NCBI GenBank assembly: GCA_046543235.1
Contig: JBKGZT010000027.1
Coordinates: 1 to 17,014, forward strand
Direction of reading: 5' to 3'
From: Candidatus Acetothermia bacterium
GTDB lineage: Bacteria > Bipolaricaulota > Bipolaricaulia > M55B111
DNA: 17,014 nt
Part shown: in pieces, positions 764 to 7,824 of the stretch
How the letters are laid out: the number at the start of each line of letters is the position of its first letter
How positions within the stretch are numbered: position 1 is the first letter of the stretch
The notes under the pieces: generated by a model
What the model was told of the DNA's origin: nothing
The model's input: only the letters and a program-made list of their open reading frames with translations
Databases searched by the model: none
Program-made: the position numbers and the translations under genes

Positions 764-1279
764 TTGGCCGGAGCTTCGTGGAGAACGGGGTTAGTCGTTA
801 TATTTTTGCTGTTTTCTCTTATTTTGCCCGGCTATGCCCAGGACGGGGCCGAAGAGGAGAGACTCAGAGAAGATATTGAGGCTAACAGGGACGCGATCGA
901 AACGATGAAAGAAAACCAGGAATCCCTGCAGGAGTCTTTTTCCGCCATGGAAGAAATGACTAGCAACCTGGAAAATCGGGTTAAGGGGATCGTCGACGAG
1001 CTGGCCACCCTGAAACAGGGCGCCTCCGAGGAAGATGACGGGTTTAACGAGCTGGAAAAGAGTTACCGTTCGCTCGAAGGCGAAATAAGCAACGTCAACG
1101 GGGAGATGGACGAAATAAAATCCACTCTGACTAAGGTCAGGGAGAAGACGATTGACAACGAGAAGACGCTGGCCGAACTGGAGGAGACTTACAGGGAGTC
1201 GGCGAGAAGGAACTTGCTGGTAGCAGCCAGCGGAATAGTAATTGGCCTTGCCGGTTTAACTCTTTTCTGGGCTTCTTAA
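764..1279 (+). CDS. Hypothetical exported coiled-coil protein with C-terminal membrane anchor
   Basis: TTG start after strong SD AGGAGGTG (751-758); N-terminal hydrophobic signal ending PGYA-Q; about 120 aa acidic heptad region; C-terminal hydrophobic helix LLVAASGIVIGLAGLTLFW. Confidence 0.75.
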   Translation: MAGASWRTGLVVIFLLFSLILPGYAQDGAEEERLREDIEANRDAIETMKENQESLQESFSAMEEMTSNLENRVKGIVDELATLKQGASEEDDGFNELEKSYRSLEGEISNVNGEMDEIKSTLTKVREKTIDNEKTLAELEETYRESARRNLLVAASGIVIGLAGLTLFWAS

Positions 1280-1383: not shown

Positions 1384-3912
1384 ATGTCCGTTATAAATAG
1401 CTTGGAGCTTCAGGGTTTCAAATCGTTTAAGAAGAAGACGGTTATTCCATTTCAGAAGAGCGGTCTCACGGCGATTATAGGGGAGAACGGCTCAGGAAAG
1501 TCCAACATAGTAGACGGCCTGACCTTCGTAATGGGGCAGCGCTCGTCGAAGTTGCGTGCCAACCGGCTGAGCCAGTTGATTTACAACGGCGGGGAGTCAG
1601 GAAAACCCGCTGATAGCGCGGCCGTGAAAGTCAACCTGGACAACACCGACAACCGATTTACGGACGCCGTCAAAGAACACCTGGAGAACGGCCGGGAGCC
1701 GGACGAGATAACCATCGGTCGGAAAGTGACGCGGAACTCCTCTTCCTACAAGTTTATGGGGAAAAACTGCAAGAGATCAGTCATTGACGACGTGTTGGAC
1801 GAAGCCAACATGGATCCCAGTCGGCATCACATCGTCAATCAGGGAAAGATAACGGAAATAGTGAATATGAGCTCAACGAAAAGGCGGGAAATAATTGACC
1901 GCCTGGCCGGGATCAGCGAATACGACGAGAGAAAGAAGCAGGCCATAAGGGATCTGAGGGATGTCAAGGAAAAGTTGATGACGAACCGGGTCATCCTGGG
2001 TGAAAGGAGAACCCAGCTGAACAGGCTGGAGAAAGAGCGGAACGCCGCACTGGATTACCGGGAGAAAGAAGAAGAGCTTGAGCTTGTCGAGAAGTCCATC
2101 GATAACAAAAAATTCAAGAACAAACAGGAAGAACTGAAAAAGTTCCAGGACAAGGAGGAGAGAATAAAGGAGAAGCTCTCTACTCTGGAGAAGAACCTCG
2201 AGAAAGCCGACAAGGAAGCGGAAGAGAAAGAGAAGAAGCTGAAAGAATTAAAAGAGGAACGGGAGGGCGACGAGGAGAAAGAGCTTTCCGGAGAAGTGGA
2301 GCAGTTAAAGATGGATCTCGTTGCAAAGAGAGGGGACGTCCGTTCCAAGGAGAAGGAAATTAAAAACCTCGAGGATTCCGTGAGGGAGCTGAAAGACCTC
2401 AAGAGCCGTACCAGCACGAAATCCACGAGGAAGAAGAGATCGGTCAAGGCTCTGCTTGATAGCGGAAGGAGCGGCATATACGGCACGATCCAGGGCTTAA
2501 TGGAGGTCGAACCCGACTACCAGGTTGCGCTGGAGACGACTATCGGGGGACACCTGCAGGATCTGGTCGTGGATTCCCGTTCTACGGCAATAGATTCCGT
2601 TAACTACCTGAAGGATAACAACCTGGGCAGGGCTAGGTTCCTGCCGCTGAGGGATATTTCCGGTTCGAGGATGAGCCAGGCGTCGAAGAAAGCGGCCAAG
2701 TTGCCCGGCGTGATTGATTATGCCATCGAACTCGTCGACTTCGATTCAAAATACCGGCGTGCATTTGAATACGTATGTCGGGATACTCTGATCGCGGAGA
2801 ACCTGGAATCCGTCGAGGAGGCGGAAAACGTTCGAGTCGTAACTCTTGATGGCGACGTCCTTAGTCGGGGAGGAGCAGTATCGGGTGGTACTGCAAAGAA
2901 AAAGAAAAGCAGCTCGACGAACGACAGGAAGAAGGAACTGGACAAGAAGATAGAAAAGAAGAAGGAAAACATCCAGCGCCTGAAACGTGAGGTTGAACAG
3001 GGCCGAAACGAGCTCGAAGAACTGAAAAAGGAGCTCGAGAAAAAGGAAAATCAGCTCGACGAAAGGACGAAGACGGACGAGGAGCTGAAGGAGCGGGCGG
3101 AAAAACTCCAGTCCGAGCTGGCTGAACTAAAAACAAGGCAGAAAGAACTGTATCGTAAGACGGAGAGGCAGAGGAGAAAAAAAGACAACGTAGAAAAGGA
3201 CCTGCAGGGAGTCAAACGGGACCTGAAGAACCTGGAAGAGCCGGACCAGAATACCGACTTCCTGGACGAGCCCCTGAAGGAGCTCATTACGAAAAAGCGT
3301 AACCTGAAAAGGGAGCTCGAGCGTCTGGAGCCGGTCAACATGAAGGCGATAGACGAGTACAAAAAGTTCAAAGAAGAAGTGGACGAGCTCGAGAACAAGC
3401 TGAACGACCTCCGCGGTGAGAAGCGGGAAGTGGAAAGACTTATCGGGAAAATAGAGAGGGAAAAGAAGGAAAAGTTCTATTCGACCATGGACGAGCTTTC
3501 CGAACATTTCGAGGAAATCTTCCGAAAACTCTTCGAGGGCGGTGAGGCTCATCTCGAGCTGAGTCGGGAGGGTGATATCGAATCCGGTCTGTTGATAAAA
3601 GCCCATCCTCCCGGGAAGGAGTTGATAGTTCTGGATTCGCTCTCCGGCGGGGAGAAGACACTTACGGCGATTGCGTTCATATTTGCACTGCAGGAGATGA
3701 ATCCGGCCCCCGTCTACGTAATGGATGAAATAGACGCCGCCCTGGACCAGCGACGTTCCAGAAAGGTAGCCGATTTACTCGAGGAATACGCAGAGGACGC
3801 ACAGCTGATTCTCATATCACATAACCGGGAGACGGCAAAACACGCCGACGAGGTATTTGGGATTTCGATGCAGAACGGTCAGTCCGAGGTTCTGTCGATA
3901 GAGTTGAACTAG
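1384..3912 (+). CDS. smc: Chromosome segregation ATPase SMC (short-armed, 842 aa)
   Basis: N-terminal GFKSF, Walker A GENGSGKS, Q-loop VNQG, hinge (GIYG...LGRARFLPL...GDVLSRGGAVSGG = GX6GX3GG), signature LSGGEK, Walker B/D-loop VMDEIDAALD, H-loop ISH; followed by scpA and scpB. Confidence 0.95.
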   Translation: MSVINSLELQGFKSFKKKTVIPFQKSGLTAIIGENGSGKSNIVDGLTFVMGQRSSKLRANRLSQLIYNGGESGKPADSAAVKVNLDNTDNRFTDAVKEHLENGREPDEITIGRKVTRNSSSYKFMGKNCKRSVIDDVLDEANMDPSRHHIVNQGKITEIVNMSSTKRREIIDRLAGISEYDERKKQAIRDLRDVKEKLMTNRVILGERRTQLNRLEKERNAALDYREKEEELELVEKSIDNKKFKNKQEELKKFQDKEERIKEKLSTLEKNLEKADKEAEEKEKKLKELKEEREGDEEKELSGEVEQLKMDLVAKRGDVRSKEKEIKNLEDSVRELKDLKSRTSTKSTRKKRSVKALLDSGRSGIYGTIQGLMEVEPDYQVALETTIGGHLQDLVVDSRSTAIDSVNYLKDNNLGRARFLPLRDISGSRMSQASKKAAKLPGVIDYAIELVDFDSKYRRAFEYVCRDTLIAENLESVEEAENVRVVTLDGDVLSRGGAVSGGTAKKKKSSSTNDRKKELDKKIEKKKENIQRLKREVEQGRNELEELKKELEKKENQLDERTKTDEELKERAEKLQSELAELKTRQKELYRKTERQRRKKDNVEKDLQGVKRDLKNLEEPDQNTDFLDEPLKELITKKRNLKRELERLEPVNMKAIDEYKKFKEEVDELENKLNDLRGEKREVERLIGKIEREKKEKFYSTMDELSEHFEEIFRKLFEGGEAHLELSREGDIESGLLIKAHPPGKELIVLDSLSGGEKTLTAIAFIFALQEMNPAPVYVMDEIDAALDQRRSRKVADLLEEYAEDAQLILISHNRETAKHADEVFGISMQNGQSEVLSIELN

Positions 3913-3921
3913 AGGAGACTT

Positions 3922-4692
3922 ATGGAAGATTATCCACGGGAAGTCCAGGAGTTTGAAGAGGGCAGTAAACCGGTAGTCTCATCCGAAGTCCTAAGTTCGC
4001 CCGATTGGAGAAACGTCCTCGAATGGTACGAGTACAGCGGTGATCCGTGGGAAGTATCGGTTCGCGACACCGCCCGGGGCTTCCGACAGGAACTGGAACG
4101 GATGGAGGGTGACAACCTGGAGCTTTCCGGGAGGATGGTTTTAACCTGTGCGGTAATCCTCCGGGCAAAAGCAGAAGGTTTGTCCGCCGAAGGGAGCTCG
4201 GTCGAGGAAGAAGAAGCGGAAGAGGGGCTCGGAGACGGTTACTGGGGTTACGAGGAGTTCGATTCCGAGAACTACATTCCCGACCTAGAGGTCCCGCTCA
4301 AGCGAATTCAGCAGAGGACGGTTTCTCGAAACGAATTGAGCGAGGCCTTTTCCAGCGCTATCGAAGTTCACGAAAGGAGAAAAGAAAGGCGGGAGAACGT
4401 AGAAGGGGACGTAAGTCCGGACTGGGGTATGGACCTGGAGGACCAGGGGAGCTTCAGGGTAAAGTTACAGAGGCTCTATCGGAAGGTAAAGAACAAACTC
4501 TCGCAGGGGAAACGTGTCCTGTTCTCTCGTTTGTTGAGTGAAAATTCCAGGGAGGAGAAGTTCCAGAAGTTCATGGAGTTGCTCCACTTGCAGTCGGAGG
4601 GGAAGATCAAATGCAAACAGGAGAAACCCTTCTCAGAGATAAAGGTGGAGCTAGCCGAAGAAGGGGGCGCCACGGGGCGAGAAGATGAGTGA
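3922..4692 (+). CDS. scpA: Kleisin ScpA (segregation and condensation protein A), archaeal-like
   Basis: N-terminal DPWEVSV...SGRMVLTCAVILRAKAE and C-terminal winged-helix motif FMELLHLQSEGKIKCKQEKPFSEI; SD GAGGAG at 3912-3917; directly follows smc. Confidence 0.88.
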   Translation: MEDYPREVQEFEEGSKPVVSSEVLSSPDWRNVLEWYEYSGDPWEVSVRDTARGFRQELERMEGDNLELSGRMVLTCAVILRAKAEGLSAEGSSVEEEEAEEGLGDGYWGYEEFDSENYIPDLEVPLKRIQQRTVSRNELSEAFSSAIEVHERRKERRENVEGDVSPDWGMDLEDQGSFRVKLQRLYRKVKNKLSQGKRVLFSRLLSENSREEKFQKFMELLHLQSEGKIKCKQEKPFSEIKVELAEEGGATGREDE

Positions 4693-6993: not shown

Positions 6994-7824
6994 TTGACCG
7001 ACGAAAACCTCGAGCGGTATTTCAACGAAGTGAAAGAGGACGTTCTTACCCGAGAGGAAGAAGTCGAACTGGCGAAACGGATCGAGAAAGGCGACGAAAG
7101 TGCAAAAAAAGAGCTGGCCCGCCATAACCTCCGCCTGGTAATTAGCATCGCCAAAAAGTATAGGAATTACGGGTTACCCTTTCTGGACCTGATTCAGGAA
7201 GGAAATCTGGGATTGATGCGGGCAATAGAGAAATTCGACTATACAAAGGGGTACAAGTTTAGCACCTATGCCACCTGGTGGATCAGACAGAGGATATTCC
7301 GGGCTATAAATAATCAGTCCAGGACGATAAGGATCCCGGCCCACATGAACGAATTGATTCGGGAAATTTATAAGCTGGAACAAAAGCACATCAACGAAAA
7401 CGGCGAGGAACCGATAGTGGAAGAGATCGCTGAGAAGCTGGACGTTGCCGAGGAGAAAGTTCTCAAGGCGAAGAAGTCGGCCCACAAGACGACCTCTCTG
7501 GACAAACCGCTCGGTAACGATTCTCCGGAAGGGAACGTTCTCGGAGATATGTTGGCCGACGAGAATGCCCCCAGGCCGGAAGAAGAGACGCTGGATAAAC
7601 TGGTAACCGACAGGCTGGAGGGTGTTCTGGAGGAATTTCTCACCGATAGGGAAAAGAGAATCCTTCAGCTCCGTTACGGCCTGAAGGACTACCACCCCCG
7701 CACTCTCGATGAGGTAGGCAAGGTCTTCGATATCAGCCGCGAAAGAGTAAGACAGATTCAGAAGCGCGCAATTCAAAAGCTTCAGACTCCCGAGGTCAGA
7801 AATAAGCTGAAAGGGCAATTCTAG
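6994..7824 (+). CDS. RNA polymerase sigma-70 factor, RpoD/RpoS-like, regions 1.2-4 only
   Basis: [13 protein letters not shown] (1.2), [12 protein letters not shown] and [33 protein letters not shown] (region 2), [19 protein letters not shown] (4.2); TTG start with SD AAGGAGG at 6982-6988. Confidence 0.93.

Follow-up and report, generated by a model that had tools for sequence, protein, structure and literature searches.

Canonical Smc-ScpAB condensins of the B. subtilis type (TIGR02168) and the Pyrococcus type (TIGR02169), with structures for heads (5xei, 5xns, 4i99, 5xg3, and 3zgx) and hinges (5h69, 4rsj, 3nwc, and 1gxl), are the closest described relatives of the system reported here. Bürmann et al. 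(2017, Mol Cell 65:861, PMC5344682) surveyed the arm lengths of 3,337 prokaryotic SMC sequences and, in the portion of that article available to us, report natural modes at 238, 341, and 515 amino acids (aa), with 'possibly' two more at 163 and 423 aa. The wild-type B. subtilis arm measures 344 aa, or 47 nm, and resized arms were functional at 253-267, 321-373, and 407-435 aa, which gives a period of 91 aa (PMC5344682). Here, we describe an smc gene in a 17,014-nucleotide stretch (the window, positions 1 to 17,014 of contig JBKGZT010000027.1) from a Candidatus Acetothermia bacterium of the phylum Bipolaricaulota. Its 842-aa product, P0001, shares with canonical Smc-ScpAB the domain order, the ATPase motifs, a hinge with a glycine motif, antiparallel strands that are broken near the head, and the partners ScpA and ScpB. 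It differs in that each of its arm strands is ~170 aa shorter. It differs from the canonical bacterial complexes further in that its sequence is archaeal in type while its host is bacterial, and ParB was not found. Taken as a whole, the evidence is best explained if P0001 is the chromosomal Smc of an Smc-ScpA-ScpB condensin with half-length arms in a halophilic Bipolaricaulota bacterium, and we hold this explanation with high confidence.

Short arms have been described in other settings. The engineered Mini-Smc proteins of B. subtilis resemble P0001 in having shortened arms under the hinge with head and hinge unchanged, and their function is periodic in arm length at ~91 aa; their shortest functional arms, however, span 253-267 aa (PMC5344682), and the natural arms of P0001 are about one period shorter still. 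The SMC proteins of Sussfeld et al. (2025, PMC12153180) also have natural, roughly half-length arms, but as presented in the accessible part of that report they lack a hinge, and P0001 retains a canonical one. Our literature search, outside of which most subscription journals and supplements lay, returned no description of a short-arm, hinge-bearing SMC in Bipolaricaulota or in DPANN archaea, and the class is not described in the available parts of PMC12153180, PMC11344861, or bioRxiv 10.1101/2024.01.07.573240. The original prediction, which treated P0001 as a natural mini-arm SMC, had named prior description of this length class as grounds for giving up its view. Such a description exists in part: the class was already glimpsed in the 2017 survey as the possible minor mode at 163 aa, but that mode is purely statistical in the text available to us, with no taxa named and no study of the class. 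The rarity that the prediction implied did not hold up, given that at least one bacterial phylum and at least one archaeal phylum have this class as their norm. What is new here is the exact measure of the symmetric arm loss, the phylum-wide distribution of the short gene, the failure to find ParB, and a likely inter-domain origin.

The gene and its parts are as follows.

1384..3912, + strand: smc (P0001), short-arm SMC of 842 aa, with SMC_N, SMC_hinge, TIGR02169, and TIGR02168 matches
1384..1911, + strand: N-terminal half of the ATPase head, aa 1-176, with Walker A at G33-S40 and the Q-loop at Q153, from sequence, alignment, and model; PDB head chains align here
1912..2439, + strand: N-terminal arm strand, aa 177-352 (176 aa by the anchors described below), with helix 177-290, a break at 291-297, and helix 298-338 by DSSP of the model
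2440..2898, + strand: hinge domain, aa 353-505, with the glycine motif G490..G502; PF06470 matches aa 363-476, and PDB hinge chains 5h69, 3nwc, 1gxl, and 4rsj match
2899..3345, + strand: C-terminal arm strand, aa 506-654 (149 aa by the same anchors), with helices 516-560, 569-616, and 631-648 and breaks at 561-568, 617-630, and 649-654 in the model
3346..3912, + strand: C-terminal half of the head, aa 655-842, and the stop codon, with the signature motif at S754-E757, Walker B at D781-E782, and H813, from sequence, PDB matches, and alignment

P0001 is encoded by a single open frame whose product begins M-S-V-I-N-S-L-E-L-Q-G-F-K-S-F. The head and hinge are intact, as predicted: Walker A, Q-loop, signature motif, Walker B, D-loop, and H-loop can all be read in the sequence, the hinge motif is G490-x6-G497-x3-G501-G502, and Pfam matches cover aa 4-833 (SMC_N, 161.9 bits) and aa 363-476 (SMC_hinge, PF06470, 103.2 bits). 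In a 56-sequence SMC alignment, K39, Q153, S754-E757, D781, E782, D784, and H813 are invariant, and the Walker A residue E34 varies among the other SMCs. The hinge glycines, where checked, likewise fall in invariant columns of this alignment. The conserved P650-V-N-M-K-A-I-D-E-Y segment starts at aa 650, exactly where it had been placed. PDB sequence matches are led by prokaryotic Smc head chains, with 5xei_A at the top (E 1.9e-87).

Arm strands were measured as the segments that link three hidden Markov model (HMM) anchors from the 56-sequence alignment, which in P0001 fall at aa 1-176 (head N), 353-505 (hinge), and 655-842 (head C). The N strand of P0001 is 176 aa and the C strand 149 aa (mean, 162.5), compared to 342-343 and 322-323 aa (mean, 332.5) in three Bacillaceae SMCs of 1189-1190 aa measured with the same anchors. 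The comparison set comprised the best 150 representatives out of 1.84 billion cluster representatives, of which 146 carried all three anchors (the fragments P0134, P0163, P0197, and P0250 were dropped), making 147 with P0001. Full-length proteins account for 99 of the 147, with a median of 346 aa for the N strand, 315 aa for the C strand, and ~330 aa for the mean arm. The 28 short representatives have a median N strand of 171.5 aa (range, 153-180) and a median C strand of 146 aa (range, 131-154). Of the 20 intermediate ones, 6 have mean arms of 216-259 aa and the other 14 have 288-306 aa, and no mean arm of 170-209 aa occurred among the 147 measured. Against the Bacillaceae values and the full-length medians, P0001 lacks 166-171 residues in the N strand and 166-174 in the C strand, and its N-minus-C offset is 27 against a full-length median of 31. 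The loss is, thus, symmetric at ~166-174 aa per strand, in agreement with the 160-170 per strand estimated beforehand, and neither of the alternatives set against that estimate, an asymmetric deletion or an assembly artifact, was borne out; the same frame recurs in many independent assemblies.

An AlphaFold2 model of P0001 built from the 56-sequence alignment (mean predicted local distance difference test [pLDDT] score of 75.6; predicted template modeling [pTM] score of 0.46) shows two long helical strands running between head and hinge. By DSSP, the N strand is helical over 177-338 with its sole break at 291-297, and the C-strand helix starts at 516, runs on into the head helix 655-717, and is interrupted at 561-568, 617-630, and 649-654. 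We considered frames of 898-1250 aa in relatives as candidate intermediate-length SMCs and rejected them, as the additional length is stop-free upstream sequence in high-GC genomes. Once trimmed to 10 residues ahead of the GFKSF-type motif, where an M-T-x-I start is seen in most rows, these frames come to 818-847 aa. We also tried to locate the missing half of the arm. A phmmer comparison of P0001 with 102 full-length SMCs aligns the short strands colinearly with the head-proximal halves in 102 of 102 cases, yet a stretch centered on the hinge aligns them with the hinge-proximal halves too; coiled-coil similarity is too unspecific for this comparison to fix the position of the deletion within the arm.

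Our anchors read ~11.5 aa below the published scale (332.5 versus 344 aa for the Bacillaceae), which places P0001 at ~174 aa, Bipolaricaulota family f6 at ~166 aa, and the archaeal members at ~157-175 aa on the scale of PMC5344682. The mean arm of P0001 fits the possible minor mode at 163 aa, as far as that mode is set out in the available text. An arm of ~174 aa also fits a window of 162-176 aa, which is the functional 253-267-aa window shifted down by one period; this shift is our own extrapolation. Among the longer arms, uncultured Bacilli, Tenericutes, and Clostridium carry SMCs of 977-983 aa (loci L075-L077, L079, and L082) with strands of 241-243 and 217-219 aa. Their mean arm of ~230 aa makes them a natural class one period shorter than usual, matching the 238-aa mode. 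The 288-306-aa arms, equivalent to ~300-318 aa on the B. subtilis scale, belong to archaeal-type SMCs (P0151, P0152, P0155, P0156, P0165, P0166, P0171, P0204, P0212, P0213, P0216, P0237, P0238, and P0249).

The short length of Smc is tightly conserved across the phylum and is under strong purifying selection. Seven near relatives have exactly 842 codons each and not one indel relative to the window smc; in the same seven, nonsynonymous divergence (dN) is 0.064-0.127, synonymous divergence (dS) is saturated, and the only defined whole-gene dN/dS is 0.024. An SMC hinge is found in 136 of 184 Bipolaricaulota genomes, distributed over our families f1 (17/18), f3 (1/1), f4 (67/74), f6 (46/50), and f11 (4/4). 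All 17 Bipolaricaulota smc loci measured, from five families, encode 818-847 aa with mean arms of 154-167.5 aa, and each hinge-bearing Bipolaricaulota family shows the half-armed build. No SMC hinge was found in families f5 (0/18), f7 (0/9), f8 (0/4), f10 (0/3), f2 (0/1), and f9 (0/1), many of whose genomes are >90% complete. A search of five hinge-negative genomes (G022, G025, G028, G034, and G037) returned no orthologue of P0001; three of them (G028, G034, and G037, from families f7 and f8) contain SMC_N/AAA_23 proteins of 813-830 aa. These families may be without Smc or may use a hinge-less relative.

The source genome itself (G000; 1.32 Mb in 97 contigs, 87% complete) has one SMC hinge match, and the check for a second, full-length smc that the original prediction proposed found no other hinge-bearing SMC in this 87% complete assembly. 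Apart from smc, a single SMC_N protein exceeds the cut-off, a 379-aa open frame, putatively RecF judging by its size and by its matches to TIGR02169 and SMC_N. Two further proteins of the genome give weak coiled-coil matches, one a CheR/PAS protein and the other an 843-aa frame without a Pfam family; the latter (contig C63, locus L006, 937-3465, - strand) matches the Smc model weakly, at 26.9 bits, as a coiled coil. Two relatives assembled as single contigs, G023 (99% complete) and G026 (96% complete), each have the short smc and one hinge match. Given this phylum-wide conservation, the scpAB operon, the absence of indels at saturated dS, and the failure to find a second smc, the view that P0001 is a selected, functional short condensin rather than a decaying one, already proposed from the window alone, is well supported.

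The same class extends into archaea, and within this large natural class P0001 is unexceptional. P0001 has a match of 41% identity over its full length on a 159-kb contig labeled Nanohalarchaeota. Among Nanohaloarchaeota, 52 of 61 genomes have the hinge, and the 12 loci measured encode either 827-847 aa or, with an insert after the P-loop, 1366-1370 aa, with mean arms of 157-163 aa. In Nanohaloarchaeota the half-armed SMC is the usual form, and it is also seen in Aenigmarchaeota. Taxon labels are missing from most short representatives; those found are Nanohaloarchaea, Aenigmarchaeota (three clusters), Naiadarchaeales, and one 'Heimdallarchaeota'. Sigma-70 was found and TFB was not in G000 and G023, whereas TFB was found and sigma-70 was not in the archaeal-phylum genomes G184, G188, and G198; the short-arm class, therefore, spans both domains. 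Some of the taxon labels call for caution. P0272 (842 aa, in the cluster of P0123) is labeled 'Candidatus Heimdallarchaeota archaeon', yet it lies among Bipolaricaulota f4 in the tree, and this label may come from a mis-binned contig. Records of some Bipolaricaulota relatives are labeled 'uncultured Thermotogae'.

Downstream of smc lie scpA and scpB, and the other features of the window that bear on this analysis are listed with them.

3922..4692, + strand: scpA (kleisin), 256 aa, starting 10 bases past smc; SMC_ScpA, 35.6 bits, and Rad21_Rec8 C-terminal match, 34.3 bits
4685..5227, + strand: scpB, 180 aa, overlapping the end of scpA by 8 bases; SMC_ScpB, 140.7 bits, and TIGR00281, 120.6 bits (cut-off, 89.2)
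764..1279, + strand: coiled-coil protein of 171 aa whose N and C ends are hydrophobic and whose coiled coil is acidic; immediately upstream of smc
6994-7824, in the window: sigma-70 gene

In all 19 loci tested, including 3 from Nanohaloarchaeota, scpA and scpB adjoin smc and follow it. The upstream gene for the 171-aa coiled-coil protein is present in 3 of the 19, all of them close relatives (L023, L036, and L032). A ParB_N domain was not found in the source genome (87% complete) or in 39 of 41 relatives, including the single-contig G023 and G026. The two ParB_N-positive relatives both belong to family f5, which is without an Smc hinge. On these counts, loading of this Smc is probably independent of ParB/parS, as in archaea.

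The survey of homologue lengths and phylogeny that had been proposed as a check recovered the short class across Bipolaricaulota and DPANN archaea, with Bipolaricaulota beside Nanohaloarchaeota in the tree. In a FastTree analysis of 176 rows restricted to head and hinge columns, 56 of the 57 short rows fall in one group. An IQ-TREE analysis under LG+C20 used 81 rows, made up of 65 of the FastTree rows and 16 labeled bacterial or archaeal loci. Its nine Bipolaricaulota rows group together (support, 87), and Bipolaricaulota and Nanohaloarchaeota share a 17-row clade with an SH-like approximate likelihood ratio test (SH-aLRT) value of 100. The next group outside that clade includes an Aenigmarchaeota-labeled sequence (support, 92), and the 18 ordinary bacterial SMCs fall together in a clade (SH-aLRT, 100) distant from Bipolaricaulota. 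The short character changes twice on this tree, and only one of these changes is forced by well-supported branches. In an approximately unbiased (AU) test, holding the 12 labeled archaeal rows apart from Bipolaricaulota plus ordinary bacteria cost 40.25 log-likelihood units (p-AU, 0.029). This nesting of the Bipolaricaulota genes in an archaeal short-arm clade, beside Nanohaloarchaeota and with the operon in common, suggests an inter-domain transfer. The window ScpB is 44-47% identical to Nanohaloarchaeota ScpB, versus 42-50% to that of other Bipolaricaulota families. A separate ScpB homologue search, which scored 164 candidates with few proteins from beyond the phylum and is weak evidence, gave Methanonatronarchaeum as the source of the nearest named ScpB from another phylum. 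Two tree-related candidates were set aside. A full-length, Halanaerobacter-labeled clade lay inside the short group in FastTree and moved to the ordinary bacterial SMCs under LG+C20 with the labeled rows, and we treat its first position as an artifact. A contig scan with the short-SMC alignment, considered as a survey of the class, returned mostly ordinary bacterial SMCs through generic P-loop and D-loop patterns, and these were used as labeled references.

We propose that this condensin would work much as its relatives do. By analogy with the family, two Smc proteins would be joined at the hinge, and ScpA would bridge both heads and bind a ScpB dimer. ATP-driven head engagement and opening of the arms could then lead to DNA capture and translocation, as proposed for B. 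subtilis and Pyrococcus Smc. The perimeter of the ring would be about half of the usual. The rise of a helix is 0.148 nm per residue. The arm is estimated at ~23-24 nm versus ~47 nm, with ~24 nm scaled from 344 aa = 47 nm and ~23 nm obtained from ~155 helical residues. This arm length probably belongs to a discrete series permitted by the superhelical periodicity of the coiled coil (Bürmann 2017), at which head and hinge would be kept in rotational phase. As for ancestry, a DPANN-type archaeon with ties to Nanohaloarchaeota is the most likely donor of the gene, and of scpA and scpB along with it, to the stem of the Bipolaricaulota. The full scenario, in which the whole smc-scpA-scpB operon moved from a DPANN-type archaeon into the Bipolaricaulota stem, has, in our estimate, slightly less than an even chance of being correct. 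A broader joint reading would hold that a module from a DPANN archaeon near Nanohaloarchaeota replaced a ParB-loaded condensin, that the ~170-aa arm is the next permitted window, one superhelical period below the shortest working B. subtilis arm, and that free-living bacteria of 1.2-2.9 Mb use a half-size ring without ParB; this we put forward tentatively, as a possibility that we would sooner doubt than assert.

We considered that the short gene could instead reflect decay or an assembly or binning artifact, either a collapsed or internally deleted smc or a mis-binned archaeal contig. The source genome, in 97 contigs and 87% complete, leaves some room for this, and the closest relatives beyond the phylum are archaeal. 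However, the 842-codon frame is present in many independent assemblies, frames of 818-847 aa recur at the 17 loci in five families, and purifying selection on smc is strong. Moreover, G023 and G026 have the short smc on single contigs, the G023 contig also has six sigma-70 matches, and the window itself contains a sigma-70 gene at 6994-7824, such that an artifact is extremely improbable. A specialized SMC-like paralogue that serves in repair, defense, or plasmid handling, of the kind represented by Rad50/SbcC, MksB/JetC, or archaeal SMC-related proteins, is also very unlikely to be what P0001 represents, if a little less so. Short arms are found in some SMC-like proteins, and P0001 scores below the cut-off of TIGR02169. 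Yet its hinge is canonical with the glycine motif, no CxxC zinc hook of the Rad50/SbcC kind was found in it (its cysteines are C129 and C465 only), it is encoded in an operon with ScpA and ScpB, and it is the sole hinge protein found in its genome and in the relatives. Rad50 models reach 38-71 bits on P0001 against cut-offs of 700-1087, the sbcC model (TIGR00618) 39.8 against 478.5, and the model for archaea-specific SMC-related proteins (ASRP, NF045487) 87 against 300.

The origin of the gene is the more contested part. Short arms could have been inherited vertically within Bipolaricaulota, with the likeness to Nanohaloarchaeota arising from convergence or from a tree artifact caused by the acidic make-up of halophiles, or the transfer could have run from bacteria to archaea. 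Both the window organism and Nanohaloarchaeota are labeled from hypersaline sites, several rows deviate in amino-acid composition, and FastTree drew a clade of halophilic Firmicutes into the short group, so a pull of this kind exists. Within the joint clade, moreover, the tree does not separate the three sub-branches clearly, and the AU test gave a p value of only 0.029. The high-GC family f6, however, lies in the same clade with a make-up flagged as unlike that of the alignment, an argument in which the non-halophily of f6 is assumed. A site-heterogeneous model gives the clade an SH-aLRT of 100, and short arms also mark the two groups that branch next outside it, which contain Aenigmarchaeota-labeled sequences. 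The window ScpB is as near to Nanohaloarchaeota as to other Bipolaricaulota families, and its nearest named relative beyond the phylum is archaeal. We, thus, consider vertical descent with convergence, or a reverse transfer, unlikely, while taking it more seriously than either an artifact or a paralogue, and we continue to prefer an archaeal source for the Bipolaricaulota operon.

Several observations weigh against the preferred reading of P0001 as a half-armed chromosomal Smc of archaeal origin. The top NCBIfam model, the archaeal-type TIGR02169, scores 689.5 bits, below its cut-off of 729.4, and the bacterial-type TIGR02168 barely passes (567.7 versus 567.35); the shortfall is as expected from the absent arm columns. 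The source genome is 87% complete, and a second smc or a parB could sit on the missing DNA. Dimerization, ATPase activity, ScpA binding, and DNA loading are all assigned to P0001 by homology. The shortest functional B. subtilis arms are 253-267 aa, and an arm of ~170 aa has never been shown to work, as far as the available text of that study extends. The original prediction placed the loss near two 91-residue periods, and this is roughly right (170 versus 182 aa) but not exact: 170 aa corresponds to 1.87 periods of 91 aa, or 1.72 periods of 99, and in neither case an exact multiple. In addition, the arms of 14 of the 147 relatives measure 288-306 aa, a range in which constructs of B. subtilis failed. 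Given these natural arms and the inexact multiple, the period rule appears loose and not universal. With regard to origin, the groups in the AU test were defined after the tree had been inspected, several tree rows have a deviant amino-acid composition, most short representatives bear no taxon label, and archaeal-type SMC also occurs in some bacteria, e.g., Vampirovibrionia.

Models of DNA capture and loop extrusion by SMC make predictions on arm length, ring size, and step size, and most tests of them have relied on engineered proteins of B. subtilis, which do not work below arms of ~253 aa. A large, strongly conserved natural class in which arms of ~160-175 aa are combined with a normal head, hinge, and ScpAB is ready material for structural, single-molecule, and complementation tests. 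The class covers one bacterial phylum and several DPANN archaeal lineages, and a half-size ring would suffice for cells whose genomes measure 0.6-2.9 Mb. If a core operon for chromosome maintenance has crossed between domains, as it appears to have done, this and the failure to find ParB in the recipients bear on how SMC loading evolved.

Some members of the class are enlarged at a different position. Short-arm SMCs of 1321-1383 aa (L061 in G212 and L062 in G205, both Nanohaloarchaeota, and P0128-P0130, P0142, P0144, and P0092) carry an insert of ~530 aa right after the Walker A lysine, and the match to P0001 resumes at residue 39. P0092 has Pfam intein and LAGLIDADG domains, and the insert looks like an intein in the P-loop. 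The window proteins are also very acidic, ScpA with long runs of E and D, and relatives are labeled from hypersaline sites, which is consistent with a salt-in halophile as host.

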